From Candidatus Parcubacteria bacterium (lineage in GTDB: Bacteria > Patescibacteriota > Patescibacteriia > UBA1558 > GWA2-36-10), in NCBI GenBank assembly GCA_018669975.1, contig JABHSK010000001.1, forward strand, positions 152,394 to 216,393: DNA of 64,000 nt, written 5' to 3'. The position numbers were made by a program, and so were the translations under genes. A model generated the notes under the pieces. It saw only the letters and a program-made list of their open reading frames with translations, was not told where the DNA came from and ran no database searches. Within the stretch, counting starts at the first letter, position 1. Each line of letters begins with the position of its first letter. Shown piece by piece: positions 8,999-52,320 of this stretch.

Positions 8999-9006
8999 AT
9001 ATTTCT

Positions 9007-10425: not shown

Positions 10426-10470
10426 ATATTTGATTTAAATTCTAATAAATTAAGACTGTGCCGTTAAGAA

Positions 10471-10546
10471 TGGAGCCGACGGTCAGATTCGAACTGACGA
10501 CCTATTCTTTACGAAAGAATTGCTCTACCAGTTGAGCTACGTCGGC
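10471..10546 (-). tRNA. tRNA-Thr (anticodon CGT).
   Basis: The revcomp has acceptor gccgacg/cgtcggc, anticodon loop ttCGTaa, T-loop ttcgaat and CCA encoded. Confidence 0.85.
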
Positions 10547-10552
10547 AAAGCA

Positions 10553-11839: not shown

Positions 11840-11982
11840 AAATAAAAAAATAATATCTGTTTATCAGCTTAAATAATACCTAAAAATTAGTTATTTTACA
11901 AGCACAATTGACTAATATGTTATAAGCTGTTTTAATATGTCAATCTATTCGTTATTTATAAACACAAACAAGGAGGATACTC

Positions 11983-12501: not shown

Positions 12502-12552
12502 CTTATTCCCGATTGAAAACAATCGGGATTTTTATTTAAATAAAAAATCAGC

Positions 12553-12963: not shown

Positions 12964-12989
12964 GAGTATTTTTATTTTTATTTAAAATG

Positions 12990-15900
12990 TTATTTCTGAA
13001 TTTGTTTGTTGATACGCTTACCTTCAAATTTTACAAATATCATCGGAATGACAAATAATTGTAAAATGGTAGCGAACAATAAACCAAAAATAATAGATAT
13101 AGATAGGCCTACCCAAAACTCATTTGCGATAGCCAGCGGTATAACTCCCATTATAGTAGTAATGGATGTTAGTAAAATTGGTTGTAAACGAGTATCTCCA
13201 GCATCAGCGATAGCTTCTACGGCCTGCATTTTCTTTTCCTCAATATTACGCTTGGTTTTATCAACCAGCACAATGGCATCATTGACCACAATTCCAGATA
13301 AAGATATCAAACCTAGGAAAACTGGAAAACTAAACGGCAGTCTAAATATCAACATGCCGATAACTACACCGATAAGCATCAATGGCAAAGTCATCAACAC
13401 GGTAATCGGTCTAAGGAATGAATCAAACTGTAATACTAGGATAATTAATATCAAGAGTACTGCTACAATCATGGCACTCCACAATTCAGAAAAAGATTGT
13501 TCTATGTCCTCTACCTCGCCGCCAAAATTTACTTGGTAGCCGGCTGGTATATTATATTCGGTGGCTAATTTTTCTTCCGCTTGAGCTACAACTGCTGCAG
13601 CTGTAAAGCCAGGTTCTAAATCAGAGCTAACTGAGATAGTTCGCTCAAAATCACGATGCCTGATGGATGCTAAAGCTGGCTCTAATGAAAAGTCAGCTAG
13701 AGAAGAAAGCTTAACTGTTTGACCAGAATTGTTAATAATGGATAGGTTTTTAATCTCCTCTACTGAAGAAATTTTATCTTTATCCAATCTAACTACTACA
13801 TCTATATCATCACCGTCAATTGAAACTTCAGTGGCTGTGACGCCAAAGATAGCTGTTCTAAGCATACTGGATACATCGCCTATGGTCAATCTTGACCTAG
13901 CAATAGCTTCTTTATCTAATTTAAAAGTTAAATCAGCAGGAGATATATCCTGGTTACTATCTATATTTATAGGTCCATCAAGGCTGATTAATACCTCCTT
14001 AATTTGATTGGCTACTTGATCTAAAATCATTAGATCATCTCCAGTAATACGAGCCTCAACTGGCGCACCGGTTGGTGGACCACTTGTTAGTTCTTTAATA
14101 ATGATATCACCAGCGTTAATAACCTTTATTTGCTCTCGTATATCTTCGACTACATCGAAGCTCTTCTTCTCACGATTATCTGAATCTTTGAGGTTAACAC
14201 TAATACTAGCTACATGTTCATTGCTACTGCCTGGATCAAAACTGCCAATACTAGAAGATTGTCCAATGGTAGTAACAAAGTTTTTTATATTTGGATTTTG
14301 ATAAAGTTGATCCTCTACTTGAGCAACCACCTTTTCAGTCTCTTGAAGCTCTGTACCAATAGGCATCTTGATGTCTACATAAGTAAAATCAACATCAATT
14401 TTAGGAAATAATTCAACTGGTACAATACCTCCAATTAATAATCCTAGTGAGGCAAAGAATAATATAACTAAAGAAATTACTAGTTTAACTTTTTGTTTAC
14501 GGCTCTTAAGAAAATCTACAATGACTGATCTGTATTTCTTTCTTAATCTAGTAGTCAAATAACGTTCCAAAATACTTTCTTTTTTGCTTTTAGCAAACTG
14601 ACTCTTTTTCAAGAACATACCAGCAAAAGACGGCACCAATACCAAAGACACAAATAAAGATGATATCAATACTATAGCAATAGTAATTGGAAAAATCTTG
14701 AGATACTCGCCCAAGATGCCGCTAACCAAAAGCATTGGGAAAAATGCAGCCACAGTAGTCAACATACCAGCTGTTAGTGGTTTGCTATAGTTAGCCACTG
14801 ATAACAGCGCTGCTTTAACAGAAGGATAACCATCTTCACGTATATTGTGAAAAATACCTTCTAGTATAATTATAAATGAATCAACCAATAGGCCCAGCGA
14901 CAATACCAAGGCATAAAGGGTCATACTGTTTAATGTGTATCCTGAATAATATAAAACTATAAATGAAATCAAGAATGTAACTGGAATGGCAAATAAAGCT
15001 AAAATAGCTTCTCTAAAACTCAAAGCAACAAACATAATCATGAAAATCAGTATTGTAGCTTGCAAACCACTCCTACCTAGTGTATCTAAATCTTCACGAA
15101 TAAAACTAGAGTAGTCATTATTAACCTCAACTTTAACTGCTGCTGGAATTATTTTATCTTCCTGTAGTTGCGCTACCTTAACTTTGGCAGCATCTACCAT
15201 ATCTAAAATATTACCACCAGTTTTTTTGAAAATCTGCAAAGAAACAGTATTTTGTGCTGGTTGTCCATCTATAGAAATTCTAGAAACAATATTTTGTTCT
15301 GTGAATTGTTCTTTAATTTCAGCAACGTCTTTTAATAAAATCGGTCGCCCCTCATTCTCACCAACTACCACACCTTTAAGATCTTCGATAGATTCAAACT
15401 TAGCTACCGTACGAATATTATAATGAATATTATCAACCGTAATATCACCCAAAGGCATATCCATATTAGCTATAGAGATAGCACCAACTATTTGATTAAT
15501 TGATAATCCCAGTCTAGCTAAAGATGTTTTATTTATAATTACAGAAAATTCTTTATCTCTAACGCCTAATAAAGGCACCTTGGAGACTCCTGAGATTCCC
15601 TCTAGCTCATCCTGTACTATTTCTCCCAGTTGCTTAAGCTGATTTTCGGTTAAATCTCCAGCTAGAGAAAAAGTGATAACTGGAAAGTCATTGGCACGAA
15701 TCTGAATAACACTTGGATCTTCAGCATCATCAGGTAATCCAGACACATAACCAACTTTTTCTTTTAAGTCAGTAATACTGTCGTCTAGATTAGCCTCTGC
15801 TTCAAACTCTACAGTAATAGATGACAAGCTGGTACGCGAATTTGATGTTACACGTTTAACATTATCCAATTCTTCAATTTTACTTTCTAGTTCATCAGTA

Positions 15901-33707: not shown

Positions 33708-35414
33708 TTAGCTCTTCTTAGCAGAAGAGGTGCGTCGTCGACCACTAAGGCGGTCTCCATGCACAATATTATGAACCATGAAACTCAAGGTCTCACTGAT
33801 AACGTTACCAACAATAGCTTCATTGTCATCGTTGCTTAGCATCAGCTGACTGATGGCAAAAGTAGCTACGGTCTCAATATAACGCATCAGACTGGTGTCG
33901 GTCTCTTCGCATTCGAACCAATAACGGTGACTCGTATTGAATGTCAACACGCCCGTCTTCATATCGAACTTGAAGGGCTCACCACTAGTGCCGACCTCAT
34001 CAAAGTCGAGCTGCAGACCAGTGGAATGTCCCCGAACCAGTTGGCGCCTATGGCCTTCCGGACCGGTAACAGTACCAGGCTGGTGCTCTGGCAGATCAGT
34101 GTCAGGCTCACCTCGGGATTCACCCTTGGCTTCAGAATTAGCCTTGTCCTGATTACCTCGGGTAGCCACTGACTTCTTCTTCTGCCTACCGACAGGCTTG
34201 GCCTTTTTATGGCCTGCACCAATAGTTCCAACCTTGAATTCCTTGATCAGATCACGCAGACCCTGGCTGTCGAGCAGACCTTCGACCACTTTGAGTGCTC
34301 TCAGTCCCAACTTCTGGAAGCGGGCTTCCCGAATGTGTGACTCGACAATGTCCAGGTGCTTCTGACCAATATCTTCAAACCATCTTTCAATACAGACACA
34401 CATACCAACTAGGGCGTCGTTAGCCACAAACCTTTTGCGACCAGCGTCCAATTCAACTCCCTGACAAGCAATTTCGCCTTCGAAAATGCCAGACCTGAGA
34501 GCCTGAATTGCCCCGTCGGACAAAATGCCGTCTATCGAATTCCAAAAAGATCTACTACTGCTAGGAATACGGAAATCATCTCCGATTTCTCCAAAGCAGA
34601 CGCTGCCCTTACGAGCACCACGCGGAGTCTTCTTGGCGATAAAAACGCGAAAGCGAGTTTCCCCACAATCTTCACTAACATAGACTGCCTCATCTAGAGG
34701 TCGTCCTTCATATTCTTTGGCCACTACTTGCAACTGAGCACGTACGTTGTCCTCACTGATAAAATCAATCTGCACTACCGTGTCAAGCTTGCGCATGACT
34801 GGACCAAACTTATCCAGAATCTGTTCAGCAAGATCCTGAGCAGTCATCCGGGTAATAGTCCGATCCTTAATAATGCCCCAAGCCTTAATCCTGGTGCGCC
34901 AAGGTACGAAGAAAGAATCTCCGGAACGATGACGTTTAGGGTTGGCACGAGTAGCATGATATTTGATCTGCGGCCGTTCCTTGAGAGGAATAGCACCAGT
35001 ATCACTCATACCACCGATATCACCAGTGTCGAATGTCCACTCCAAGAACCCAGTCTGACCAGGCGTCTTGCGGTAATGGCAAGACGTGAAGGTAAACTTT
35101 TCGCACTTACCCAAATATGAAATCATACCACGGCCCCAGCGACCCATCTTGTCGCGACTCTTCACGGTCTTACCGATTTGAGTCAGACACTGTTCGAATT
35201 TGACTCGGGTCACACCCTGGCCATTATCGACGATGTCCAAACCGCGTTTTTTAAGATTGATACGGATACCAATAAGCGTAGCCTTGGCGTCTAGAGCATT
35301 TTGAACTTGCTCCAGTGTCGCATCCAATAAAGATGGATAAGTACCGGCCACCATCATCAATATTTGACCAAGATTAACATTAATCGTACTTTGACTTCCT
35401 TTTTCAGGTGTCAT
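33708..35414 (-). CDS. GHKL-superfamily ATPase (MORC/HATPase_c_3-like N-terminus) with an uncharacterised C-terminal ~350-aa region.
   Basis: Bergerat-fold motifs QNALDA (N-box), DNGQGV (G1) and GKTVKSRDKMGRWGRGMIS (G2). GC-rich, with a terminator at ~33655-33695. Confidence 0.6.
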   Translation of the reverse strand: MTPEKGSQSTINVNLGQILMMVAGTYPSLLDATLEQVQNALDAKATLIGIRINLKKRGLDIVDNGQGVTRVKFEQCLTQIGKTVKSRDKMGRWGRGMISYLGKCEKFTFTSCHYRKTPGQTGFLEWTFDTGDIGGMSDTGAIPLKERPQIKYHATRANPKRHRSGDSFFVPWRTRIKAWGIIKDRTITRMTAQDLAEQILDKFGPVMRKLDTVVQIDFISEDNVRAQLQVVAKEYEGRPLDEAVYVSEDCGETRFRVFIAKKTPRGARKGSVCFGEIGDDFRIPSSSRSFWNSIDGILSDGAIQALRSGIFEGEIACQGVELDAGRKRFVANDALVGMCVCIERWFEDIGQKHLDIVESHIREARFQKLGLRALKVVEGLLDSQGLRDLIKEFKVGTIGAGHKKAKPVGRQKKKSVATRGNQDKANSEAKGESRGEPDTDLPEHQPGTVTGPEGHRRQLVRGHSTGLQLDFDEVGTSGEPFKFDMKTGVLTFNTSHRYWFECEETDTSLMRYIETVATFAISQLMLSNDDNEAIVGNVISETLSFMVHNIVHGDRLSGRRRTSSAKKS

Positions 35415-36145
35415 TCTTCCCTCCCTTTTTTATCTAGAGTTAACTTTCTCGATTCCTTACTACATAATCCGTGCAAAGCTTGGGCTGCATTATACAAACC
35501 ATCATCTGATATACTACGCCGCAATTGACGGCGATCATTATCAGAAAACTCATCTGACAAAACAGCTTGAGCTAAAGGCAAAAGAGCCTCTACTTGTCCC
35601 TTCAATGCCTGAAATATGGCATCACGTGAACTTTGTCTTAAGCTAGTAGGTAGCGATCGTTCAGTCCTCTGACTTGTTTTGAGAATAGGACGATCATTTA
35701 AACCAACGAAGTCTTCGGCTGGGTAACGTTTGAGTATAGCTTCGATCATAGCGAGCTTAGCTCTACCAGCATTGCAAACGTTATTAAGCACCGGAAAAAA
35801 TGAATCTCTGCCAGCATAACCTAATTTCTGACACGCTTCATCAAAAGACATCCGACCGATTGAAATAATCCATCCCAAAGACAGGACCTGTGGTGCCAAG
35901 TCTCTCAACTCAGCCACATCATATCCCCGACTATGGAGAAAATACTTCAACCGAATAAGATTTTTACCCGAGGGCATTTTTTTACCATTAAGCCAACGAT
36001 AGGCTAATGGATCAGAAGCTTTGCAGAAATCAGCCAAGGGTTTCCTGGCTGCCAATACTTGTGACTTGCCAGTTGGCAAGGTTCCTGCGTAATGATCCAA
36101 ACATTGTCTGGCATTACCTGAAAAATTAACGGGGGTTTTTCCCAT
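35411..36145 (-). CDS. Hypothetical protein, upstream partner translationally coupled to the GHKL ATPase.
   Basis: ATGA overlap with the downstream gene. Strong RBS gaaggagg and a TTGACA-N17-TAATTT promoter on the minus strand at ~36255-36287. Confidence 0.5.
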   Translation of the reverse strand: MGKTPVNFSGNARQCLDHYAGTLPTGKSQVLAARKPLADFCKASDPLAYRWLNGKKMPSGKNLIRLKYFLHSRGYDVAELRDLAPQVLSLGWIISIGRMSFDEACQKLGYAGRDSFFPVLNNVCNAGRAKLAMIEAILKRYPAEDFVGLNDRPILKTSQRTERSLPTSLRQSSRDAIFQALKGQVEALLPLAQAVLSDEFSDNDRRQLRRSISDDGLYNAAQALHGLCSKESRKLTLDKKGREE

Positions 36146-39099: not shown

Positions 39100-40917
39100 A
39101 TGAAAACAATAAACAAGCTTAAACAAACAATTAGCAATAACATCAAGTCTATTCTTGATATAAATTTAAGTATTGATACATTTAACTTAGATTTACCGCC
39201 AAACGAAAAAATGGGTGATTATGCTTTTCCCTGTTTTGATTTAGCTAAAAAACTAAAAAAAAGCCCTACTGAAGTATCATCACAACTAGCAGCTGAATTT
39301 AAAATTGGTGGCCTTATTAAACAAACAAAAAATATCGGCCCTTATCTTAATATATTTGTTAGCAATACCTTTCTACAAGACAGTCTAATAGAAATATCCA
39401 AAGATAAAAACTTTGGTAAATCAAAAATAGGCCAAGGGCAAAAAATACTAATTGAATTTTCTGGACCAAATACCAACAAACCACAGCACATTGGACATGT
39501 TCGCAATGATTGCCTCGGGCAATCACTAGTAAACATCTATAAAACGAGTGGTTACAAAACAGTGGCAGTCAACATTATCAATGACCGTGGCATTCATATA
39601 GTCAAAAGTATGTTGACCTGGCAAAAATTTGCCGATGGTGAAACACCAAAATCTGCTGACATGAAAGGTGATCACTTGGTTGGTAAATATTATGTAAAAT
39701 TTGGTCAACTATTAAAAGAGGAGCAAGATAAATATTTTTCCGACAAAAATATCAACTTGGCTGACTTACCTAATTTAGAAAAAAAACAAGCTGAAGAAGA
39801 ATTTTTACAACAATCACCTTTAATGGAAGAATCTCGGAAGATGCTCATTGCCTGGGAAAACAATGATCCTGCAGTAAGAAAACTCTGGAAAATGATGAAT
39901 GACTGGGTCTATGTTGGTTATGACAAAACCTACAAAGATTTAGGTATTGAATTTGATCATTTAGATTTTGAGAGTGAAAATTATCTTTTAGGCAAAGATA
40001 TAATAGAAGAAGGTTTAAAGAAAAAAATATTCTTTAAAAAAGAAGATGGCTCTGTTTGGATAGACCTAAGTGACGAAGGTTTGGATGAAAAACTCGTTTT
40101 GAGAAGTGACGGCACTTCAGTATATATCACCCAAGACCTGGGCACTGCTCACGCGCGTTATAAAAAATTTAAATTTGATAGGTTAATTTATGTAGTTGCC
40201 AATGAACAAGACTACCACTTCAAGGTTTTGTTTTTAATACTAAAAAAACTGGGCTATAGCTGGGCTGACAGCCTACACCACCTATCCTATGGAATGTTTT
40301 CTCTGCCTGGTGGTAAAATAAAATCTCGTGAAGGCAAGACGGCTGATGCAGATGAATTAATTGCTACTATGATAGCTCAAGCCAAAGACATTATATCCAA
40401 AGCTGAAAAAAAGGTAGCTACCTCTGAAAAAGAAAAAGAAAAAATAGCTAGGATCGTAGGTCTGGGTGCTTTAAAATTCTTTATACTGGGCACTAATCCA
40501 CAAAAAAACATTGTTTTCAAGCCCGAAGAATCAATATCATTTGATGGCTATACTGGCACTTTTGTACAATACACACATGCTAGAATATCAACCATGCTAA
40601 ACAAAGCTGGAAAAATATCACCAAATGCTAAAGTAGCATCAATTGATTTTAATTCTGAAGAAAAAAAATTAGTTAAAACACTACTTGAGTTTCCTCAAAA
40701 AATAATATTATCAGCCAACGATTACAATCCATCCATCTTAACCCAGTATCTCTTCGATTTAGCTAAAACCTATAATAATTTCTATCAACACCACCAAGTC
40801 ATCAATGTTGATAGCAAAAAAATAAAACAAGCTAGGTTAAGTATTTCCCTACAAACAAAAAACACCCTAACAAAAGGACTGGCTCTACTTGGTATTGAAG
40901 CACCAGAGGTAATGTAA
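39100..40917 (+). CDS. argS: Arginyl-tRNA synthetase.
   Basis: Class I HIGH (PQHIGHVRN) and the ArgRS anticodon-binding C-terminus. A terminator lies at ~40930-40958. Confidence 0.9.
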   Translation: MKTINKLKQTISNNIKSILDINLSIDTFNLDLPPNEKMGDYAFPCFDLAKKLKKSPTEVSSQLAAEFKIGGLIKQTKNIGPYLNIFVSNTFLQDSLIEISKDKNFGKSKIGQGQKILIEFSGPNTNKPQHIGHVRNDCLGQSLVNIYKTSGYKTVAVNIINDRGIHIVKSMLTWQKFADGETPKSADMKGDHLVGKYYVKFGQLLKEEQDKYFSDKNINLADLPNLEKKQAEEEFLQQSPLMEESRKMLIAWENNDPAVRKLWKMMNDWVYVGYDKTYKDLGIEFDHLDFESENYLLGKDIIEEGLKKKIFFKKEDGSVWIDLSDEGLDEKLVLRSDGTSVYITQDLGTAHARYKKFKFDRLIYVVANEQDYHFKVLFLILKKLGYSWADSLHHLSYGMFSLPGGKIKSREGKTADADELIATMIAQAKDIISKAEKKVATSEKEKEKIARIVGLGALKFFILGTNPQKNIVFKPEESISFDGYTGTFVQYTHARISTMLNKAGKISPNAKVASIDFNSEEKKLVKTLLEFPQKIILSANDYNPSILTQYLFDLAKTYNNFYQHHQVINVDSKKIKQARLSISLQTKNTLTKGLALLGIEAPEVM

Positions 40918-41018
40918 ATATATTTTAATACGTCCCGCATATAGCGGGACGTTTTTTTAATAAATAAAAAACTCCCAACCAGTGGCTGGGAGCCATATGT
41001 TTGATACAAGTAAAAAAC

Positions 41019-42353
41019 CTAGTTAGCGACACGGGATTCCAATAACCCCGGAAATCTACCTTCAATCTCTTTACGCCAAGTGGCTGCATTACCAGAAAAA
41101 CCAATCTTTTCCAACAACTGACTACCTTCTAACCAAGCTAGATAATTCTCTCTATTCCTATGAATGGCTTCCAAACAGCAGCTAATAGCTACTCCTATAT
41201 TTCCAAAGTGCAGCTGACATTGAGCCAAGCCAAGCCAAGCATACGAATAGTCACGATTTATATCTAAAGCAGCATCAAAAAATGTTTTGGCTTTGTGCAC
41301 CTTACCGGTAAACAATGCCAATTCACCCAAATACCTAAGCAGATGCTCACGCTTGCTTTCATAGCTATCCAATAATTTAATATCGGCATATAACCCCTCA
41401 GTTAACAGCTGTGCCTCTGGATGCATAGGATCTCTGATGCATTGACGCAAATAGTTGACGCCAACTGCCGCATATTGTAACAAAACAGAACGGTCATTTG
41501 GATAATACTTACGAGCATCTATAATCATTTGCCAGGCCAAACTAGCCTGACCAGCAGTCACATAACAAGCTGACAGCTTAATCATTAAATCTGACAAATA
41601 ATCTAGCTGCTCTCTTTTTTCTGGAACCACAGTTAAGACTTTCTGCCAAGCCTTTTCTAGACTAAGCAAACTAAGATTAAGACTATTGATTGGCAAAACC
41701 TCGCCTTCTACTGAGACAAGGAATTCACAAGCAACGGCATAATCAAAGTAGGGGCTGCCTGGATTGTCAATAATTGCCTTGCGCAATATCTGAACAATAT
41801 GAGCTCGATCGTTGGAAATTCCAACTACCTTATCGGTATCATGTAAGATGGTAGCTATATCAGTATCTTCAATCTTCAATTTTTCCTCATTAGCCCATCT
41901 AAGCAATGAAGGGGCTACTTTTTCTCGGACTCGATACCGATATCTGACTTTCTTGTGATTACGGAACAAACGAACTGTCTCCGCACCTACAATGGGCTCA
42001 CCAGCATCAAGAGAAACGACATTGATATTATAACCAGCCACATCATCCTCCAAAAGCCGCTGAAACTGATTTGGAGATATGGGTGTTAACCTTTCATTGG
42101 GATTAAGCACTAATATCCAATCACAGCTAGCCTCTGCTATTGCCATATTCCTGGCCTTAGCATAATTATCCTTAAAATCAAAATCAATAACTCTAGCACC
42201 ATAACCTTCGGCTACAAGCCTAGTATTATCGTTTGAACCTAGATCCACGACTATAATTTCATCTGTTATGGCCAACGCTGACTTGAGGGACATACCAATG
42301 TCACTCTCGTCATTATAGCAGATCATGCAAAAAGACACGGTCTTACGTTTCAC
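41019..42353 (-). CDS. Family-2 glycosyltransferase fused to C-terminal TPR repeats.
   Basis: The GT2 region reads ICYNDESDIG...VVDLGSNDNT. The probable start is a GTG preceded by aaggagg; the listed ORF extends to 42443. Confidence 0.7.
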   Translation of the reverse strand: MKRKTVSFCMICYNDESDIGMSLKSALAITDEIIVVDLGSNDNTRLVAEGYGARVIDFDFKDNYAKARNMAIAEASCDWILVLNPNERLTPISPNQFQRLLEDDVAGYNINVVSLDAGEPIVGAETVRLFRNHKKVRYRYRVREKVAPSLLRWANEEKLKIEDTDIATILHDTDKVVGISNDRAHIVQILRKAIIDNPGSPYFDYAVACEFLVSVEGEVLPINSLNLSLLSLEKAWQKVLTVVPEKREQLDYLSDLMIKLSACYVTAGQASLAWQMIIDARKYYPNDRSVLLQYAAVGVNYLRQCIRDPMHPEAQLLTEGLYADIKLLDSYESKREHLLRYLGELALFTGKVHKAKTFFDAALDINRDYSYAWLGLAQCQLHFGNIGVAISCCLEAIHRNRENYLAWLEGSQLLEKIGFSGNAATWRKEIEGRFPGLLESRVAN

Positions 42354-42550
42354 AACTACCTCCTTGTTGCGACTTGTATCATTTATATTATTTAAAGGAA
42401 CTTGGACGATTTTGTATAGTAACATAAAATACAAAAAAATCAATGCATATAAAAAGTATTTAATAAATCATCTTTTTTGCCTAAATCTAAATCTTTGTCT
42501 TGACTTTTTGCAAAAAATACCATATAATAATCTTCGTATTTTCATAATTT

Positions 42551-42627
42551 GCGCCTATAGCTCAGCCTGGTAGAGCAGTTGCCTTTTAAGCAAACGGTCG
42601 GGGGTTCGAATCCCTCTGGGCGCACCA
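42551..42627 (+). tRNA. tRNA-Lys (anticodon TTT).
   Basis: Acceptor gcgccta/tgggcgc, anticodon loop ctTTTaa, T-loop ttcgaat and CCA encoded. Confidence 0.9.
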
Positions 42628-42735
42628 GATATCACAACACTCTAGTGTTGTTTTTTTATTGACAAAAAACACTAAAAATATTAAGGTAAAGCGTCATAAT
42701 ATAGTTCTTCAAAACTAAATAAGGAGGTAAAAACA

Positions 42736-43218
42736 ATGAGCCAAAGACACGAAATACTAGGTGGTTATTTTCCTTACTGTCAATTCTGTCTCCACGATGG
42801 TAGTTGTGCATTAAGGCACTGTGACTTCCTAGAAAAATCTAACTGCCATGGAATAGATAACTCTATTCCTTATAGAGGCCATGAAGATTTTATCTGGCTA
42901 TTCAGCATATTCCAAGCCAATAGCACACGAGGTTCTTGCTCGGGTCGCATATCTCAAACAAACAGTCCATTCTACCCCCTGCAATGTTCTTGTGGCACTG
43001 TCATCAACTCTTTGAGTCTAAGCAGTTTAATGGGTGGACATGCCTGCCAAAAATTTACTCCCAATGCTAGTGGTCAATTACGTTTGGCAACTGCCCAAGA
43101 AATAGCTGCCCGTCGACAAGCTAACCCCGAAAAGGACGTGCTTACTGAAGTCGAACTCAGTGAATTAGAACAACGCTGTCCTTTTGACCAGAACTACCAA
43201 TCAGCCATGTTGCTATAA
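42736..43218 (+). CDS. Cys-rich hypothetical protein.
   Basis: AGGAGG RBS and 14 Cys residues (CQFCLHDGSCALRHC..., CSCGT...) in an elevated-GC block after tRNA-Lys. Confidence 0.5.
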   Translation: MSQRHEILGGYFPYCQFCLHDGSCALRHCDFLEKSNCHGIDNSIPYRGHEDFIWLFSIFQANSTRGSCSGRISQTNSPFYPLQCSCGTVINSLSLSSLMGGHACQKFTPNASGQLRLATAQEIAARRQANPEKDVLTEVELSELEQRCPFDQNYQSAMLL

Positions 43219-43234
43219 AACAAGGAGGTGAAAA

Positions 43235-44326
43235 ATGGCGCGTCGCTACAAACGACCAGCTGATGCCTGGGAAAAATGGAGCGCTTCTAAACTGGACGCA
43301 GCCTGTGGCTGCCCTCTACGTTGTTTTCTCGAATACATCATGCGTATCCGCAAGGATCGTTTCCCAGTGACAGTGTTTGGCTCAGCCATGCACTATATGT
43401 TTCAGCGTTTCTTTACGCCGCATAAATCCAGCGGTAATTATCCCTATCAAACTGTAGAAAAGTTTCTCGGAGCCTGGAAAGGTTTTTGGTGGACAGCTGT
43501 CCAAGGTAAACATGGCTTCTCTAGTATGGGTTCTGACCCAGAAGATGTTCCTTGGCGTGATACCGATCAACAAGGCCAGCTCTTTGGAGCTGGTTGGAAT
43601 ATCCTTAAGCGCTTTTTTGAGGAGCACCACGCTATGCGTATAGATGGTAATCAACGTTTTATTGAAAAACGATTTACCTTTGAGTGGCAAGGTCTCAAAC
43701 TAACCGGCGTATTAGATCGTCTAGATCTTTTACCTGACGGAGCTGTTATATTAGACTACAAAGGTCACTCTTTTCGACCACACGATGTAGAAACTGGTTT
43801 GCAGATGACTATCTACCAATTGGCCTATGAACAACATTTCCGTAGGCAGTTTGCTGATGGAAAACCATTAAAAGATATACAGATCTACAATTATCGCAAT
43901 GGCGTAACACAACCACTACCCATTCGTCAAAATTACGAGATTGGCCTATTACTCTATTACCTGACTGAGGGTTATGAATATTACCGGGCCATCTTGACTG
44001 GACATCCAGTCCGTCGAGAAATTATCAAGCGCTTCTGGTTTTTTCCAGAAGACGACATCAACACTGGTAATATTACCCCACACCTACCGCGAGGATCGCA
44101 TTGTACTTGGTGTGAAAACTTCAAGTTATGTCGAGCCTGGGAATTGGGCGATCATGAAACTCCGCAAGCTATGTTTGCTAGTAAATTCCAACAGGAAGAC
44201 GCTCAACGTGGCCCAGAAGTTATTACCATGCCTTTTACTCAGGAGCGTATTTTCCAAGTCGGCTGCACTAGCTTTGACTTAATCAAGCAAGTAGCACATG
44301 TCAGACAAGGCGATTTGTTTACCTAA
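43235..44326 (+). CDS. PD-(D/E)xK nuclease of the Cas4/RecB (DUF83) family with an Fe-S-type Cys cluster.
   Basis: N-terminal Cys; VLDRLDL...ILDYK (motifs II/III); QMTIYQLAY (QxxxY); C-terminal CTWCENFKLC (C-x2-C-x5-C). AGGAGG RBS. Confidence 0.6.
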   Translation: MARRYKRPADAWEKWSASKLDAACGCPLRCFLEYIMRIRKDRFPVTVFGSAMHYMFQRFFTPHKSSGNYPYQTVEKFLGAWKGFWWTAVQGKHGFSSMGSDPEDVPWRDTDQQGQLFGAGWNILKRFFEEHHAMRIDGNQRFIEKRFTFEWQGLKLTGVLDRLDLLPDGAVILDYKGHSFRPHDVETGLQMTIYQLAYEQHFRRQFADGKPLKDIQIYNYRNGVTQPLPIRQNYEIGLLLYYLTEGYEYYRAILTGHPVRREIIKRFWFFPEDDINTGNITPHLPRGSHCTWCENFKLCRAWELGDHETPQAMFASKFQQEDAQRGPEVITMPFTQERIFQVGCTSFDLIKQVAHVRQGDLFT

Positions 44327-44453
44327 AAACCTCTAAATATCCTCGGCTCTAGTACACCTAGAGCCGTTTTTTATTTTGTTGAAAAACTGTCCATAAACAG
44401 CCTTGAAAAATAAACAAAAATGAGTTAAGCTGATTTTACGTGATATATAACCC

Positions 44454-45914
44454 ATGTCCAGAATACCCCCACAAAATCTAGAGGCTGAAGCCAGTTTATT
44501 AGGCGCTTTAATGTTAGATAAAGATGCTATCATTAAAATTGGCGATGCTTTGAGCACAAGTGATTTCTACAAAGATGCTCACGGTCTGATTTATCAGGCT
44601 ATTTTAGATTTATTTGAAAAACATGATCCAATAGACAGTTTATCTATTGGTAATAGATTAGGTGAAAAAAAACAGCTAGAGAATGTTGGTGGTAAATCAT
44701 ACCTAGCAGAATTAACCGCCTCTGTGCCAAACTCATCTCATGTTTTATCCTATGCTAAAATTATCCGCAAAAAGTCTACTCTAAGGAAACTAGAGCAAGC
44801 TGCGGCCGAAATTAGTGAGTATAGTTTTTCTGAATCAGAAGAAGTAGAAAAATTACTCGATAAAGCTGAGCAAAAACTATTTTCAATCTCTCAAGAATCT
44901 ATCAAGAAAAACTTCATTCCCATTAAAAGTGTTTTAACTGATACTTTTAATCGTATTGATGAATTACATAAAAATGGTGGCCAAGGTACTCGTGGTATTC
45001 CAACTGGATATACTGACTTAGACAAGCTACTATCTGGTATGCAAAAATCTGATTTAGTTATATTGGCAGCCAGGCCATCCTTGGGTAAAACCACCCTTGC
45101 CTTGGACTTAGTTCGTAATATAGCCATCAAGGCCAAGGTGCCGGTTGGTATCTTTTCTTTAGAGATGTCTAAAGAACAATTGGTGGATAGATTTCTAGCA
45201 GCTGAGGCTGGTGTAGATCTATGGCGTATGAGAACTGGTAAGCTGTCCGACAGAGAAGAAGATGATGATTTTCCACGTATTGGTCGAGCTATGGGCGTAT
45301 TATCCGACGCACCAATATTCATTGATGACTCACCCAATGCCAATGTTATGGAAATCCGTACTAAAGCTCGTCGTCTAAAAATGGAACATAATTTAGGCTT
45401 TTTGGTTATTGATTACTTACAACTTATGGATGGTGGTAGTCGAACTGAAAATCGCGTCCAGGAAATTTCTGAAATATCAAGATCTTTAAAACAGATTGCC
45501 AGAGAATTAGATATACCAGTATTAGCTCTATCACAGTTGTCTAGAGCAGTAGAAAACAGAAGTCCAGCTATTCCTAAATTAGCTGACCTGAGAGAATCTG
45601 GCTCTATCGAACAAGATGCTGACATTGTTATGTTTATCTATAGAAAAGCAAAGGATAAGAGTCGAGAATGCCCAGAAGAAGAAAAAGCTCTAGCTGAAAT
45701 TCACATAGACAAACATCGTAACGGGCCAACTGGTATTGTTAGATTATTCTTTGATGAAAATAGAGTCTGCTTTAAAAACCTAGATCCTGGCTATCAGGAT
45801 TCCACTCCACCACCAATGACTACCGATGAAATGCCTATTCCTAACCCTGGTGGTCAAGCACCTCCTGATGGTAAGACATCTAAAGGAAAAGTGGGTTGGC
45901 AGAACATGTCTTAA
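44454..45914 (+). CDS. dnaB: Replicative DNA helicase.
   Basis: PQNLEAEASLLGALMLD, Walker A ARPSLGKTT and the DnaB C-terminal RecA fold. Confidence 0.9.
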   Translation: MSRIPPQNLEAEASLLGALMLDKDAIIKIGDALSTSDFYKDAHGLIYQAILDLFEKHDPIDSLSIGNRLGEKKQLENVGGKSYLAELTASVPNSSHVLSYAKIIRKKSTLRKLEQAAAEISEYSFSESEEVEKLLDKAEQKLFSISQESIKKNFIPIKSVLTDTFNRIDELHKNGGQGTRGIPTGYTDLDKLLSGMQKSDLVILAARPSLGKTTLALDLVRNIAIKAKVPVGIFSLEMSKEQLVDRFLAAEAGVDLWRMRTGKLSDREEDDDFPRIGRAMGVLSDAPIFIDDSPNANVMEIRTKARRLKMEHNLGFLVIDYLQLMDGGSRTENRVQEISEISRSLKQIARELDIPVLALSQLSRAVENRSPAIPKLADLRESGSIEQDADIVMFIYRKAKDKSRECPEEEKALAEIHIDKHRNGPTGIVRLFFDENRVCFKNLDPGYQDSTPPPMTTDEMPIPNPGGQAPPDGKTSKGKVGWQNMS

Positions 45915-45950
45915 AATATTAATTTAAAAAAATAATTAAAAAAATAAAAA

Positions 45951-46241
45951 ATGTTTAACAAACTCAAACAATACAACGACCTACGCAAACAAGCTAGCAC
46001 CCTTAAAAATGCTATGGCCGACGAAAGTGTAGAAGTCGAAAATTCTGCCGTCAAAATCATCATGGATGGCAATCAGGATATAAAGTCTCTAGATATTAAA
46101 GAAGATTTTATGCGTCCAGAAAAGAAAAAAGAATTGGAAAAGAAAATCATGGATGGCATCGGTGATGCTATAAAAAAAGTACAGCGTAAAATGGCCATGA
46201 AAATGCAAAAAATGGGTGGCCTAGATAATTTCATGAAATAA
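45951..46241 (+). CDS. ybaB: Nucleoid-associated protein YbaB/EbfC family.
   Basis: 96 aa; C-terminal MQKMGGLDNFMK; the conserved dnaX-ybaB-recR type neighbourhood. Confidence 0.75.
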   Translation: MFNKLKQYNDLRKQASTLKNAMADESVEVENSAVKIIMDGNQDIKSLDIKEDFMRPEKKKELEKKIMDGIGDAIKKVQRKMAMKMQKMGGLDNFMK

Positions 46242-46837
46242 TGAAGCATCTACCAGATTTTATACAACGATTAATAGTTGAATTTGATAAACTGCCTGGT
46301 ATTGGCCCGAAAACTGCTACCAGGCTAGTTTTTAATTTGTTACATAGACATGATGACATAAAAAGTCTGGCTAATGCCCTCAATGAAGCACATCAAAATA
46401 TCCATTTTTGTCCGGAGTGCTACAATCTTACCGATGATGGACTATGTAGTATTTGCAACAATCCACAAAGAGATAAAAAAACTATCTGTATAGTAGCCCA
46501 CAACCAAGATGTTGAAGCTGTAGAAAAAACTGGAGACTTTGAAGGAGTCTATCATTTGCTAAATGGTTTACTTAGCCCCTTAGAAGGCATAACACCTGAC
46601 AAGCTTAAGATAACAGAATTGACTTCCCGTATAAAAAATAACGGCGTTAAAGAAATAATCTTAGCTTTAGACCAAAGCATGGAAGGTGAAGCGACCACTA
46701 TTTATATCTCAAAATTGCTGGCCGAATATTCCGTGACCGTCAGTAGACTAGCTCGCGGTATACCCATGGGCGCCAACATTGAATATACTGATGAGGTAAC
46801 TTTATCCTCGGCAATTAAAAATAGAAAAAAATTATAA
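46241..46837 (+). CDS. recR: Recombination protein RecR.
   Basis: HhH, C4 zinc finger CPECYNLTDDGLCSIC and Toprim. A terminator lies at ~46838-46875. Confidence 0.9.
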   Translation: MKHLPDFIQRLIVEFDKLPGIGPKTATRLVFNLLHRHDDIKSLANALNEAHQNIHFCPECYNLTDDGLCSICNNPQRDKKTICIVAHNQDVEAVEKTGDFEGVYHLLNGLLSPLEGITPDKLKITELTSRIKNNGVKEIILALDQSMEGEATTIYISKLLAEYSVTVSRLARGIPMGANIEYTDEVTLSSAIKNRKKL

Positions 46838-46871
46838 AAAGAGCGACGTCGTATGACGTCGCTTTTATATT

Positions 46872-47273
46872 TTAGATAAGACCAGATTGCCACCTCTGAA
46901 CCTTTTTATAGCCAAACAGCCACCAACGATTCCTAGCTGACATTGCCTGCAAAGAAGTGAGTAATGCTGTCCTATCAGCGACTTGCTCACGCCAAGCTAT
47001 ACAATGTTCCGTACCTCGCCAGGTGCGAACTTGCCAATAAATATGCGGAAAACCTATTTCTTCGACAATTGCCCGTATAATAGTTGCACACCTGTGATCC
47101 ATATATAAGGTAAGACGATCCTCGCTACCAACCATAGCAAATTTGACTCTACTACCATTTTCTAATAATTCAGCGTTTAATCTTCTATAACACATAGCTG
47201 CCCACCTATGATCTTCTTCTTCAAATTCTATTTGGGGTATTAAAATAACTGCATTATAAGTCTTGAGAAGCAT
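46872..47273 (-). CDS. Hypothetical protein (orphan with elevated GC).
   Basis: Its own TTGACT-N17-TAATAT promoter and aaggag RBS on the minus strand. No domain recognised. Confidence 0.45.
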   Translation of the reverse strand: MLLKTYNAVILIPQIEFEEEDHRWAAMCYRRLNAELLENGSRVKFAMVGSEDRLTLYMDHRCATIIRAIVEEIGFPHIYWQVRTWRGTEHCIAWREQVADRTALLTSLQAMSARNRWWLFGYKKVQRWQSGLI

Positions 47274-47382
47274 CTTATACTCCTTATCATTACTGTTAAA
47301 AAGTACACGTGAACATTAATAGATATTAAAATATAAAATTACAAAAGTCAAACAAAAAACCCGCACAAGCGGGATTTTTATA

Positions 47383-47694
47383 TTAAACGATAATATTGTC
47401 TATTTTGACTTCAGTCAAATGTTGACGATGTCCAATCTTTCTTCTGTATCTAGTCTTGTTTTTATATTTCAAAACGTCAATTTTCTTATCTTTAAAATTC
47501 CTAACTAGAGTAGCTTCTACTTTAGCTTTGGCTACCCGTGGCTTACCAACTGTAACATTAGCTTTATCGGCTACCAATAATACTTGATCAAAGATAATTT
47601 TCTTACCTTCTTCTTCGGGTAATTTTTCTATCTTAAGAACATCACCTTTTTTGACTTGGTATTGTTTTCCACCTGTTTTGATTACTGCAAACAT
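47383..47694 (-). CDS. rplU: 50S ribosomal protein L21.
   Basis: MFAVIKTGGKQYQVKKGDVLKIEKL, with the start at 47694. A terminator lies at ~47357-47387. Confidence 0.85.
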   Translation of the reverse strand: MFAVIKTGGKQYQVKKGDVLKIEKLPEEEGKKIIFDQVLLVADKANVTVGKPRVAKAKVEATLVRNFKDKKIDVLKYKNKTRYRRKIGHRQHLTEVKIDNIIV

Positions 47695-48481: not shown

Positions 48482-48580
48482 GCTTTATTCCCCTGGACAA
48501 TCTCGATAATACATATTTGCTGGGGAATTCGCAAGAACCTTAAAATCACTCAAAACGACTCTATCAGGAGGCACAAGCAC

Positions 48581-49261
48581 ATGGAAGCCAAAACCGAAAA
48601 AATCACCACCGTTGACACCACCGACACTCGAGAAAACCCCCGCCCTTTCACTGCCCTGCTTTTCTTTCGCAAGGAAGAGGAAGGAAACGCCACCGTCCTG
48701 CGCGCCGAATATGGCATGGGGCTCCCCCAGAGCTGCTACGTCTACGTCGACCAGGAGGACGATTCCCGCAACGGCATCCGTGAAGGATGGAACCTGGTCT
48801 GGGTATCGATCAAGCTGACGGCCGGCAAGGCCTACGCTCGCATCGTCAAGAAGGAGGACGCTCTCCGCTATCGCCTGCAGTGCCTGGTCGCACAGCAAAA
48901 GCTGGCGGAAGCCAAGGCTCCCAAGGTGGCTGACACCTCGGAAGACGAGAAGACCGTCCTGGCCATGCTGTTCGCCAAGAACACACCCTACACCGATCGC
49001 AAGAGCGGCAACACCACGGTGAAGCCGATCTTCAAGTACGGTCAGGGTATCGGGGGCCGCGGTGGTCACACCGTATTCGTCCACAAGGACGCCCTCGACA
49101 TGATCACCAACGAAGGCTGGTACCTGTGTGTACTGAATCGCAGTGCGCTGCGACTGAAGTACAGCTTCGCCAAGCCCTACCTGGTGAGTCAGTACATCGC
49201 CGAGATCATCGACGCCATGCAGGCGCAGTTGACTCGTTGCGGGTACTCCATGAGTTACTAG
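48581..49261 (+). CDS. Hypothetical protein.
   Basis: RBS caggagg; GC ~58%; no recognisable domain. The antisense ORF 48485..49084 is judged spurious. A terminator lies at ~49275-49315. Confidence 0.5.
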   Translation: MEAKTEKITTVDTTDTRENPRPFTALLFFRKEEEGNATVLRAEYGMGLPQSCYVYVDQEDDSRNGIREGWNLVWVSIKLTAGKAYARIVKKEDALRYRLQCLVAQQKLAEAKAPKVADTSEDEKTVLAMLFAKNTPYTDRKSGNTTVKPIFKYGQGIGGRGGHTVFVHKDALDMITNEGWYLCVLNRSALRLKYSFAKPYLVSQYIAEIIDAMQAQLTRCGYSMSY

Positions 49262-49349
49262 GAAACTCCTAGTACAGACAACCGGTTCCGCAAGACATCT
49301 TGCGGGGCCGGTTTTTTCATTGTTTAAAAAAGACTCCCTCGAAAGGGAG

Positions 49350-51192: not shown

Positions 51193-52320
51193 GTGAAAAG
51201 AAAGCCTGCATTGAGAAACCTGCGCCAGTTCATCGAACTGATGGTGTCTTGTAATGTTAATGACCACCAATCTTGGAAAGCTTTTGCTGTAGAATATAAA
51301 CCTGAAATTGGCCGTTTATTTGGCTACTCACAAGACGAAGGCTTACCATCTATCACTTCTGTGGTTAAACCATTTTTCCATCCTGAATTACCGCTAATTG
51401 GCTTGAACTACACGCCAGTAGCTCATAACACTCTACACGCCTTTCCTCAGGGCTGGACTGATGAGCTTAGGCTCTGCCGAGGCATTATTTTTGACCGTAA
51501 TGGTCAGCTAGTGGCCCTGCCGTTTCCTAAGTTTTTCAACTATGGCGAGCACCCGGAAACTCAAGATATCCCTGACCTACCTTTTGAGGCTACTCTCAAA
51601 CAGGATGGACACCTAGGAATTATTTTCCGTTATCAGGATAAATTTATTCTGACTACTCGTGGCTCTTTTAAGAGTAATAGCTCTCTCTTGGGCAACCGTA
51701 TGTTATCTCGCTATGTACGAGAAAATAACTGGCAACGTCATTTTCCGACCAATCTAACTCTACTGGTGGAAATCATCCACCCAGATACTAAGGTTTACGT
51801 CGACTATGACGGCCAAAAGCAATTCACTATTATCGGCGCTAATAGCACGGCTACTATGGCTGACTATGGTTATAAGCGTTTGCTGAGCTACGGTAAAAAA
51901 TTGAATTTGGAAGTATCCCCTATCTGGACTGGTCGTTCTGTCAATGACCTGGTGGAATTGATGAAAGATCGTTCAGTGGAAAATACTGAGGGTTACGTAA
52001 TTCGTTTCCAAAACGGATTACGCGTCAAGGTAAAATTCCAAACTTACATAGGTTATATGGTAGCTGACAAACTCAGCTTCACCTATCTGATGAATCGGAT
52101 GATCAGTGGCAACCTGGAAAGGATGCTGTCTACTCTACCCGAGGAAATCTATCAGATAGCTCTGGAAATGTTGGGTCGTACCATGCTGCTCCTAAGTACG
52201 CCTGGTACAGCCAAAGAAAAATGGCGCCAGCTCTATACACTGGTACCATCTGAGCAATCAACATCCTATTTCCAATTAATCTGCCGCAAGTTCGTCAAAC
52301 ACATGACTAATACGGCCTAA
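51193..52320 (+). CDS. ATP-dependent RNA/DNA ligase-like nucleotidyltransferase (Rnl-like).
   Basis: KxDG motif I (TLKQDGHLGIIF), motif III-like LLVEIIHP, motif IV-like DGQKQFTIIG and motif V-like EGYVIRFQNGLRVKVK. Confidence 0.5.
   Translation: MKRKPALRNLRQFIELMVSCNVNDHQSWKAFAVEYKPEIGRLFGYSQDEGLPSITSVVKPFFHPELPLIGLNYTPVAHNTLHAFPQGWTDELRLCRGIIFDRNGQLVALPFPKFFNYGEHPETQDIPDLPFEATLKQDGHLGIIFRYQDKFILTTRGSFKSNSSLLGNRMLSRYVRENNWQRHFPTNLTLLVEIIHPDTKVYVDYDGQKQFTIIGANSTATMADYGYKRLLSYGKKLNLEVSPIWTGRSVNDLVELMKDRSVENTEGYVIRFQNGLRVKVKFQTYIGYMVADKLSFTYLMNRMISGNLERMLSTLPEEIYQIALEMLGRTMLLLSTPGTAKEKWRQLYTLVPSEQSTSYFQLICRKFVKHMTNTA

Follow-up and report, generated by a model that had tools for sequence, protein, structure and literature searches.

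Stand-alone proteins of the PF12705/COG2887 'RecB family exonuclease' type are found in cells and in phages. They consist of a single domain in which the catalytic motifs follow the order E, D, DxK, QxxxY, and they also carry an N-terminal Cys and a C-x2-C-x5-C motif. The same RecB-type fold occurs in much larger enzymes of about 1,000-1,200 aa, AddB/AddA of Bacillus AddAB and AdnA of mycobacterial AdnAB. In AddB and AdnA, a [4Fe-4S] cluster is bound by this four-Cys arrangement. Cas4 (PF01930/DUF83, TIGR00372, COG1468) belongs to this superfamily too, with the Fe-S motif and a similar chemistry. Hudaiberdiev et al. (PMC5704561), who treated PF12705 as a family separate from Cas4, reported that solo Cas4-family genes are over-represented in CPR genomes and mostly vertically inherited. 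Also, a defence-linked Cas4-family nuclease, ACE1, has been described (PMC12094033). Here we analyse a Parcubacteria locus in which a cysteine-rich protein (ORF1) is followed by a nuclease (ORF2) that shares the domain composition, motif order and cysteines of the stand-alone exonucleases, and that is almost certainly a conserved, non-mobile PF12705 Fe-S nuclease.

The coordinates of the features, given on the 64-kb window (the whole stretch of DNA that was analysed), are collected in Table 1. The initial annotation described a tRNA-Lys followed by two genes of 160 and 363 aa with strong ribosome-binding sites and raised GC, and this layout was borne out: AAGGAGGT lies 7-8 nt before the ATG of both ORF1 and ORF2, and their GC, of 43.3% and 44.7% respectively, is modestly higher than that of argS, dnaB and recR (33.5-38%) and of the whole window (39.8%). 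The gap between both genes is of 16 nt and a pattern scan detected no terminator in it; ORF1 and the nuclease are probably co-transcribed in this genome. The region upstream of ORF1 has a collinear, almost identical counterpart in L011, the closest relative, despite the inversion of the neighbouring tRNA cassette there, and probably acts as a putative promoter and leader for ORF1 and the nuclease. The tRNA-Lys has a promoter-like site of its own at 42500-42528 and a hairpin followed by a T-run at 42634-42651 (pattern scan). At the other end, the terminator-like hairpin after ORF2 probably closes the unit ahead of dnaB. A similar hairpin was found 3' of the L001 orthologue and none was detected in L003 or L005, so that two of the four loci scanned have one between nuclease and dnaB.

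Table 1. Position and strand of the features at the ORF1-nuclease locus, numbered on the 64-kb window.
Feature	Position	Strand	Basis or remark
argS, arginyl-tRNA synthetase	39100..40917	+	upstream synteny anchor
GT2 + TPR glycosyltransferase	41019..42443	-	Pfam Glycos_transf_2 and TPR; between argS and tRNA-Lys
tRNA-Lys(UUU), anticodon ttt	42551..42627	+	ARAGORN and Rfam
ORF1 upstream region, conserved	42659..42735	+	starts TTGACA, ends with AAGGAGG ribosome-binding site
ORF1, 160 aa, cysteine-rich cytoplasmic protein	42736..43218	+	
ORF2, 363 aa, stand-alone PD-(D/E)XK nuclease (PF12705; RecB/AddB/Cas4-like) with four-cysteine Fe-S motif	43235..44326	+	
Terminator-like hairpin, 9 pairs (6 G-C), then T-run	44344..44366	+	pattern scan
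dnaB (44454-45914), ybaB (45951-46241), recR (46241-46837)	44454..46837	+	downstream synteny anchor

ORF2 matches Pfam PF12705 (PDDEXK_1) far beyond chance (E=7.9e-23, 82.1 bits against a cut-off of 22, residues 14-214). In agreement, the same domain was pre-assigned in all 14 ORF2 homologues, the protein is already named 'PD-(D/E)XK nuclease family protein' at NCBI, and its PHROG matches, phrog_69 (E=8e-17) and phrog_1218, are both called 'exonuclease'. NCBIfam addB models also match weakly, over the motif II-III region. The hallmarks of Cas4/AddB-type nucleases that the initial annotation had read in ORF2 are all present. The catalytic set comprises E144 (motif I), D161 (motif II), D174-x-K176 including Y175 (motif III) and Q190xxxY194, and a sequence signature for an Fe-S site is formed by C26 together with C290-x2-C293-x5-C299. 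In 56 relatives with 24-58% identity, C26, H53, E144, D161, K176, Q190, Y194, C293 and C299 are invariant, D174 and Y175 nearly so, and C290 is kept in at least 90%; the catalytic and Cys residues are likewise invariant in the set of 14 relatives. By inspection of its sequence, ORF2 has neither signal peptide nor membrane segment.

Profile and fold comparisons agree with these motifs. The AlphaFold2 model of ORF2 (pLDDT 84, pTM 0.78) is confidently predicted to adopt the fold of a RecB-type alpha/beta nuclease, with a Foldseek probability of 1.00 to AddA/AddB, AdnA, ACE1, Dna2 and RecB; Cas4 and Exo5 are also matched with weaker E-values, the probability ranging from 0.96 to 1.00 overall. The model reaches moderate TM-scores against solved nucleases (0.35-0.48 of the query, with 8-18% identity in the structural alignments) because ORF2 carries a poorly modelled insert and a 60-residue C-terminal extension. 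The former is an aromatic-rich stretch at residues about 60-112, with a pLDDT of about 51 at 91-110, and the latter spans residues about 300-363. Searching the PDB by sequence, with ORF2 alone and with its profile, gave no meaningful match. A marginal match to the HMGB1 A-box (E=0.004), over the Cys-motif region, was judged spurious.

The top PDB matches of the model are AddAB and AdnA structures (4cej, 4cei, 9np6 and 6ppr, E 5e-07 to 1e-05). However, ORF2 has 363 aa, it has no helicase or helicase-like domains, and no addA-like or UvrD-like gene adjoins it among the ORFs of the window and of the related loci, its neighbours being ORF1 and dnaB. With a single domain and no adjacent gene for a partner subunit, ORF2 is not a helicase-nuclease of the AddAB/AdnAB/RecBCD type, and since it has no helicase domains it does not translocate along DNA alone. 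The best structural matches in BFVD are phage RecB family exonucleases such as that of Thermus phage P23-45 (E=1.6e-10, TM 0.52-0.76), with 11-18% identity in the structural alignments. ORF2 is about 60-100 residues longer than these phage proteins, owing to its insert and its C-terminal extension, and, unlike them, it is encoded on the chromosome of Parcubacteria, in conserved synteny and with vertical inheritance, as detailed below.

The idea of a solitary Cas4-like gene, put forward in the initial annotation, holds as far as a stand-alone Fe-S nuclease of RecB/AddB/Cas4 type is concerned, and does not extend to a true Cas4. Cas4 structures are matched by the model with Foldseek E-values of 1.7e-03 to 4e-02, but ORF2 is nearly twice as long as Cas4, scores 15.5 bits with TIGR00372 (cut-off 65) and 13-18 bits with the PADLOC Cas4 models, and PF01930 was not reported at E<=0.1 in the Pfam search; with a score so far under the Cas4 threshold, ORF2 does not qualify as Cas4 proper. 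ORF2 is not accompanied by cas1, cas2 or a CRISPR array. It had been stated that neither array nor cas genes are nearby, and indeed Tandem Repeats Finder returned only one 37-bp AT repeat in the 64-kb window and a Pfam scan of its 26 larger ORFs found no cas domains. The nuclease resembles the solo-Cas4 of CPR and DPANN genomes in being stand-alone, in belonging to a small genome and in its vertical evolution (PMC5704561).

We found the order P-type ATPase / argS / tRNA-Lys / nuclease / dnaB / ybaB / recR / rplU to recur at no fewer than four distinct loci of related Parcubacteria (syntenic groups L001/L002, L003/L004, L005/L006/L012 and L014), while L013 keeps ATPase / argS / tRNA-Lys / nuclease with no dnaB after it. 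In every recovered related locus that spans the site (L001-L006 and L012-L014) the nuclease occupies the same position. The anchors are well supported: the argS orthologues carry ArgRS Pfam domains and those of dnaB, ybaB and recR carry precomputed DnaB, YbaB_DNA_bd and RecR domains, the latter three being 67-82% identical to the window proteins. The tRNA-Lys is present as an orthologue in all related loci (mean column identity of 94%, n=7 aligned), its orientation varying among relatives. Across loci, identities are of 45-58% for the nuclease, 58-64% for ArgRS and 60-72% for the ATPase, and they rise and fall together. This comparison indicates that ORF2 is a vertically inherited chromosomal gene of Parcubacteria, fixed between tRNA-Lys and dnaB-ybaB-recR across one clade. 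The subfamily has at least 67 representatives at E<1e-30. Its more distant CPR members are also in housekeeping neighbourhoods: in L015 and L017 their neighbour is an M16 peptidase, PheRS or LepA being close by, and in L007 the gene lies upstream of the mraZ dcw cluster. The link of the nuclease to dnaB and recR belongs to one clade only and no partner gene is conserved subfamily-wide; thus the neighbouring genes do not directly indicate a pathway.

The initial annotation regarded the two genes as inserted at a tRNA-Lys hotspot and possibly derived from a phage or plasmid. In such a scenario a small mobile cassette made up of ORF1 and the nuclease, or what remains of a phage or plasmid, would have integrated at tRNA-Lys. 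Both genes lie directly 3' of the tRNA gene with a GC 4-10 points over that of their neighbours, the slot between tRNA-Lys and nuclease contains zero, one or three small genes depending on the relative, and the tRNA cassette is inverted between close relatives, which denotes that the spot is recombinationally active. For the nuclease, synteny refutes the proposal, since the gene occupies the same site in all the loci mentioned with a divergence that matches that of its flanks. ORF1, by contrast, is absent from that site in L001-L006 and L012-L014. The GC offset does not point to mobility either: the nuclease orthologue has a higher GC than its neighbours in the three orthologous loci tested (3/3), even in one of 27% GC, and an offset common to orthologues is a property of the gene and not a sign of recent arrival. 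Direct repeats of the tRNA-Lys 3' end, which had been suggested as a check, do not flank the nuclease; a search of the whole window with up to 3 mismatches recovered only the T-arm/acceptor end of a tRNA-Tyr at 2155-2179, and nothing relevant appeared among the direct and inverted repeats in 40900-47400. No integrase or recombinase was found among the genes from argS to rplU, which are GT2-TPR, ORF1, nuclease, dnaB, ybaB, recR and a 133-aa ORF without family match. A tblastn of the nuclease against 50,697 phage and 72,556 plasmid records returned no relative, and a pattern-seeded scan of IMG/VR no confirmed one; its phage similarity is at the level of the fold only, to phage RecB-family exonucleases. 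Derivation from a phage or plasmid thus receives no backing, and we consider a mobile origin of the two genes as a cassette highly improbable. For ORF1 alone the same explanation is partly tenable, and what stands of the hotspot idea is that the tRNA-Lys/nuclease slot that holds ORF1 varies between relatives.

ORF1 has the length given in the initial annotation, and the cysteine count is 10 rather than the 14 stated there. It belongs to an unannotated family of 32 clusters in metagenome and Parcubacteria contigs, with seven Cys and one His invariant (C15, C18, C24, H28, C68, C84, C86 and C104). These residues, which include a C-x2-C-x5-C, suggest one or two Zn or Fe-S sites, and ORF1 is probably a metal-binding protein. 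No match was found for ORF1 in Pfam, NCBIfam, PHROG, PADLOC or PDB, and its profile gave only marginal matches against PDB and Pfam, to an L31 zinc-ribbon-like region (E=0.14) and to a PSI repeat; the AlphaFold2 model, obtained from a 5-sequence alignment, is poor (pLDDT 43). Beside the nuclease at this slot, ORF1 is found only in the closest relatives, L011 and the genome carrying P0016. The same slot contains small ORFs that are unrelated to ORF1 in L001, L002, L005 and L006, and in general zero to three unrelated small genes elsewhere. A conserved ORF1-nuclease pair was rejected, as five other ORF1-family contexts have no adjacent nuclease and the ORFs of the slot are unrelated. Judging from these comparisons, ORF1 occupies a variable slot in this lineage and is not a conserved functional partner of the nuclease. 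The 16-nt spacing and the shared upstream region may nevertheless reflect a lineage-specific functional link between both genes.

These results also bear on the proposal of a module for anti-phage defence or anti-defence, formed by both genes together or by the nuclease by itself. In one version, modelled on ACE1-Argonaute or on the solo-Cas4 genes that lie beside R-M systems in DPANN archaea, the Cas4-like nuclease would degrade DNA that invades the cell and the Cys-rich protein would act as a sensor or regulator. The short gap with no detected terminator would suit a pair, and ACE1 (9iab, 9iac), itself a stand-alone Cas4-family nuclease fold, is among the best structural matches of ORF2 (E about 2e-06, TM 0.50-0.55 target-normalised). 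Furthermore, Hudaiberdiev et al. (PMC5704561) mention defence among the possible functions of solo-Cas4 when it occurs in small genomes. However, identity to ACE1 is of 12-15%, and neither in the window nor in the recovered nuclease loci is there an adjacent defence gene, be it Argonaute, R-M, cas or another; the surroundings consist of argS, dnaB, recR, an M16 peptidase and mraZ, a housekeeping rather than a defence setting. PADLOC (PADLOC-DB v2) matched the nuclease weakly, through the Cas4 models already mentioned, and gave no match to ORF1. Nor is the pairing of both genes conserved, since the relatives of ORF1 adjoin a PDDEXK nuclease only in the nearest genomes, and the fixed position and vertical inheritance differ from typical defence islands. 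The defence or anti-defence pair of the initial annotation did not hold up, and we see a function of this kind as very unlikely.

Another explanation may be that the nuclease works in the uptake of DNA or in the salvage of nucleotides, processing incoming or scavenged DNA and not acting in chromosome repair. It assumes auxotrophic, naturally competent ultrasmall bacteria as hosts, and a stand-alone ssDNA exonuclease fits such a role. Cultivated Saccharibacteria are naturally transformable and, to our knowledge, CPR bacteria lack nucleotide biosynthesis. On the other hand, no com or pilus genes adjoin the nuclease in any recovered locus, the protein has no segment for export or membrane attachment, and the conserved genes closest to it function in replication and recombination, so that we regard uptake or salvage as unlikely.

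Taken as a whole, the explanation that we think probable is that ORF2 is a vertically inherited housekeeping PF12705 nuclease acting on DNA ends and that ORF1 is a separate gene, not its regular partner. As for the role itself, DNA-end processing in repair or recombination is the most likely one by analogy with related enzymes, with a chance that we would place slightly above even. In this sense, ORF2 would be a single-domain, metal-dependent PD-(D/E)XK DNA nuclease, a housekeeping enzyme of Parcubacteria. As in AddB, AdnA, Cas4, Dna2 and Exo5, its cysteines would hold a [4Fe-4S] cluster, which may anchor the N-terminal helix on the C-terminal part, thereby shaping the DNA-binding site. The enzyme would degrade or nick ssDNA ends with Mg2+ or Mn2+, probably in the 5'->3' direction, and its end processing may feed recombinational repair of the RecA/RecFOR type or replication restart in a small genome. 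In the literature on CPR recombination pathways, we found nothing specific to the ORF2 family. A more ambitious proposal, which we consider speculative and unlikely to hold in all its parts, is that ORF2 would be the missing end-resection or replication-restart nuclease of Parcubacteria, a CPR-specific PF12705 subfamily with its own insert and extension; that it perhaps needs no dedicated RecB/AddA-type helicase, by borrowing DnaB or feeding RecFOR; and that ORF1 may have been recruited in this lineage as a redox- or metal-sensing accessory.

The housekeeping reading of ORF2 corrects an apparent tRNA-linked mobile or defence insert into a conserved chromosomal gene, and provides a concrete case, with conserved synteny, of the published retention of solo Cas4-like nucleases in ultrasmall CPR genomes. 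The hosts of these retained nucleases have a pared-down repair machinery, and such retention would imply an important housekeeping role in DNA repair or recombination. Additionally, ORF1 flags an unannotated cysteine-rich family, in metagenome and Parcubacteria contigs, without structural or functional match.

The GT2-TPR gene that precedes tRNA-Lys is context, outside the nuclease unit, and is lineage-specific, being present at this locus only in L011 and in the genome carrying P0016. The possibility that it encodes a SunS-like S-glycosyltransferase that modifies ORF1 was set aside as a low-probability one: no GT2 gene occurs at the remaining ORF1 loci and the co-occurrence of both genes at the locus is that of one shallow lineage, while the architecture and the weak best PDB matches (GmaR, ThuS and SunS) would allow it.

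In the Candidatus Parcubacteria (CPR/Patescibacteria) genome from which the window derives, a tRNA-Lys gene is followed by ORF1, which encodes a Cys-rich protein, and by the nuclease gene ORF2, with a AAGGAGGT site upstream of each and 16 nt between them. The GC content of both ORFs (43.3% and 44.7%, respectively) is higher than that of argS, dnaB and recR (33.5-38%) and of the window (39.8%). Positions and GC values thus agree with the initial annotation, which had described two genes of raised GC with strong ribosome-binding sites after the tRNA. The ORF1 protein is 100% identical to a public record named 'hypothetical protein HOB10_01040', and the ORF2 protein to 'PD-(D/E)XK nuclease family protein [Candidatus Parcubacteria bacterium]', so that the nuclease annotation of the latter was already known from NCBI.

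Features of the tRNA-Lys/nuclease locus and its surroundings (window coordinates)
Feature	Position	Strand	Size or residues	Basis
GHKL-type ATPase two-gene unit	33708-36145	-	568 aa and 244 aa	
GT2 + TPR glycosyltransferase	41019-42443	-		
Promoter-like site of tRNA-Lys	42500-42528			pattern scan
tRNA-Lys(UUU)	42551-42627	+		ARAGORN and Rfam
Hairpin and T-run after tRNA-Lys	42634-42651			pattern scan
ORF1	42736-43218	+	160 aa	
L31-like stretch of ORF1	42976-43098		residues about 81-121	
ORF2, nuclease	43235-44326	+	363 aa	
HMGB1 A-box-like stretch of ORF2	44069-44221		residues 279-329	
Strong terminator-like hairpin 3' of ORF2	44344-44366			pattern scan
ORF between recR and rplU	46872-47273	-	133 aa	
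High-GC patch	48500-49300			
ORF in high-GC patch	48581-49261	+	226 aa	
Overlapping antisense ORF in high-GC patch	48485-49084	-	199 aa	
T4 Rnl1-type RNA ligase domain protein	51193-52320	+		

ORF2 matches Pfam PF12705 (PDDEXK_1; E=7.9e-23, 82 bits against a cut-off of 22) and the PHROG 'exonuclease' families phrog_69 (8e-17) and phrog_1218. It carries every nuclease motif that the initial annotation had listed: C26, D161, D174-Y-K176, Q190xxxY194 and C290-x2-C293-x5-C299. Among 1.84 billion representatives searched by profile, 4,633 proteins score at E<1e-3 and make up its wider superfamily; only 67 score at E<1e-30 and make up its specific subfamily. Among 56 aligned subfamily members of 24-58% identity, C26, H53, E144, D161, K176, Q190, Y194, C293 and C299 are invariant and D174, Y175 and C290 nearly so; given this conservation of catalytic and cysteine residues, the enzyme is predicted to be active and the subfamily to be under purifying selection. 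The AlphaFold2 model (14-sequence alignment; pLDDT 84, pTM 0.78) resembles, in Foldseek searches of the PDB, the nuclease domains of AddA/AddB, AdnA, ACE1, Dna2 and RecB, with lower-scoring matches to Cas4, RecE and Exo5; among viral models it matches phage RecB-family exonucleases. Since profile, motifs and fold agree, the assignment as a nuclease holds at the PF12705 level, within the RecB/AddB/Cas4-like superfamily. Two features are particular to the subfamily: an insert (about 60-112) that is rich in aromatic residues and partly disordered, and a helical C-terminal extension of 60 residues. We also observed a marginal match (E=0.004) of the HMGB1 A-box to the subfamily profile, spanning the Fe-S cysteine motif and the helix after it, which is probably compositional.

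The name Cas4 does not apply in the strict sense, because ORF2 scores well below the models (15.5 bits against a cut-off of 65 for TIGR00372; 13-18 bits for PADLOC Cas4 models) and has no cas context: the initial annotation had noted no CRISPR array or cas1/cas2 nearby, no CRISPR-like array occurs in the 64-kb window, and a Pfam scan of its 26 larger ORFs found no cas domain. Nor is it an AddB, as it lacks the helicase-like domains of that protein. In its action, ORF2 may rather be likened to the AddB or AdnA nuclease module, or to stand-alone RecB-family exonucleases.

We then compared gene order in the DNA retrieved around nuclease homologues. Related Parcubacteria loci (L001/L002, L003/L004, L005/L006/L012 and L014) share with the window the order P-type ATPase (minus strand), argS, tRNA-Lys, 0-3 small ORFs, nuclease, dnaB, ybaB, recR and rplU (minus strand), the L004 sequence ending before the ATPase. 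A further one, L013, retains ATPase, argS, tRNA-Lys and nuclease, and dnaB does not follow. In this MAG, the place of the dnaB-ybaB-recR block is taken by a dense run of 12 ORFs on the minus strand (149-183 aa; 7103-13042), several of them weakly paralogous (23-30% identity). Orthologous nucleases are 45-58% identical to the window protein, in step with the divergence of their neighbours; where the ATPase is most divergent (60%, two loci), so is the nuclease (45%). Each of the three orthologous loci tested, even one of 27% GC, has a nuclease gene whose GC and GC3 exceed those of its neighbours; the offset is therefore a property of the gene itself and no sign of recent arrival.

The initial annotation had placed the nuclease in an integration hotspot and considered a phage or plasmid origin. 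No integrase lies between argS and rplU, no useful repeats flank ORF1/ORF2, and the only second match to the tRNA-Lys 3' end in the window is the unrelated T-arm of a tRNA-Tyr. A tblastn search of 50,697 phage and 72,556 plasmid records returned nothing and an IMG/VR scan confirmed no relative, so the likeness to phage exonucleases holds for the fold but not for the sequence. The gene order conserved in the related loci refutes mobile insertion as the origin of the nuclease. Distant subfamily members also sit among housekeeping genes: in L015 and L017 the gene follows an M16 peptidase and is close to LepA or PheRS, and in L007, a Kerfeldbacteria contig, it lies upstream of mraZ-rsmH-ftsL-PBP-murE. 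CPR genomes are reported to be enriched in solo Cas4-family genes, with mostly vertical evolution (PMC5704561), a picture that the placement of ORF2 fits; PF12705 is briefly discussed there as a separate family.

With its family, fold, conserved active site, conserved cysteine ligands and fixed chromosomal position established, the nuclease can be compared with AddB, AdnA, Cas4, Dna2 and Exo5. By this analogy C26, C290, C293 and C299 would hold a [4Fe-4S] cluster, and the enzyme would use Mg2+ or Mn2+ to cleave single-stranded DNA ends, probably 5'->3'; in the cell, it would process DNA ends for recombinational repair or replication restart. That the gene is kept close to dnaB, ybaB and recR in a single clade is no more than suggestive: between nuclease and dnaB, a terminator-like hairpin occurs in the window and L001 but not in L003 or L005, and the distant members have other neighbours. 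A service in DNA uptake or salvage is possible. The role of a defence gene, also considered initially, is unlikely given the housekeeping context, the lack of PADLOC partners and the vertical inheritance.

ORF1 has 10 cysteines rather than the 14 first counted. Its family comprises 32 clusters by profile search, all unannotated and with only Parcubacteria among the organism names attached. Seven cysteines and one histidine are invariant (C15, C18, C24, H28, C68, C84, C86 and C104), the first three forming a C-x2-C-x5-C motif. Cysteines so spaced bind [4Fe-4S] in WhiB-like proteins and AddB/Cas4, so a putative Zn or Fe-S protein is a reasonable inference. ORF1 has no match in Pfam, NCBIfam, PHROG, PADLOC or the PDB, and its AlphaFold model (5 sequences, pLDDT 43) is too poor for use. 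The zinc-ribbon region of ribosomal protein L31 bears a marginal resemblance (E=0.14) to the invariant 'C-x-C-G-T-V-I ... C' stretch of the family.

An ORF1 relative adjoins the nuclease only in the nearest relatives of the window genome, L011 and the 560-kb contig that carries P0016. Elsewhere, relatives follow the dcw cluster in the vicinity of tRNA-Glu, rplU, recR and dnaB (L009, L021), beside MOSC and sigma-70 genes (L018), beside an R-M gene and an aminoacyl-tRNA synthetase (L019) or among unknown genes (L020). None of these five adjoins a PDDEXK gene, which speaks against the pairing suggested initially. The tRNA-Lys/nuclease slot holds small ORFs unrelated to ORF1 in L001, L002, L005 and L006 and is empty in L003, L004, L013 and L014. 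In this sense, the slot is variable, with ORF1 as one of its changing occupants and the nuclease as its fixed flank; the hotspot idea survives for the slot but not for the nuclease.

Several other features of the region were observed. The tRNA-Lys cassette (promoter, gene and terminator hairpin, about 160 bp) is inverted in L011, the closest relative, with respect to the window genome (window 42497-42657 against L011 3282-3400), and also in L001, L002 and L013; both breakpoints lie at TTGAC promoter -35 elements, and the ORF1 leader beside the cassette remains collinear. Across the tRNA, a GT2 + TPR gene occurs at the locus only in genomes that also have ORF1. Its best solved relatives are protein glycosyltransferases (GmaR 2e-15, ThuS 2.4e-5, SunS 3e-3), and a function as S- or O-glycosyltransferase of ORF1 is conceivable, though unsupported at other loci. 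Directly upstream of the P-type ATPase gene lies an uncharacterised two-gene unit encoding a protein with a GHKL-type ATPase domain (HATPase_c_3) and, with a 4-nt overlap, a smaller one with no family match. The ORF between recR and rplU is absent from L001-L006 and has no family match except a weak PADLOC 'E2' (E=0.0018); the P0016 genome has a 124-aa ORF at this position. The high-GC patch (56-60% against about 38% for the genome) gave no significant Pfam or PADLOC match, no Rfam or phage match and a weak PHROG match (E=0.0056). The loci of the relatives lack a counterpart, and the patch may have been inserted recently from a foreign source. Finally, this CPR genome encodes a protein with a T4 Rnl1-type RNA ligase domain (PF09511, E=3e-18).
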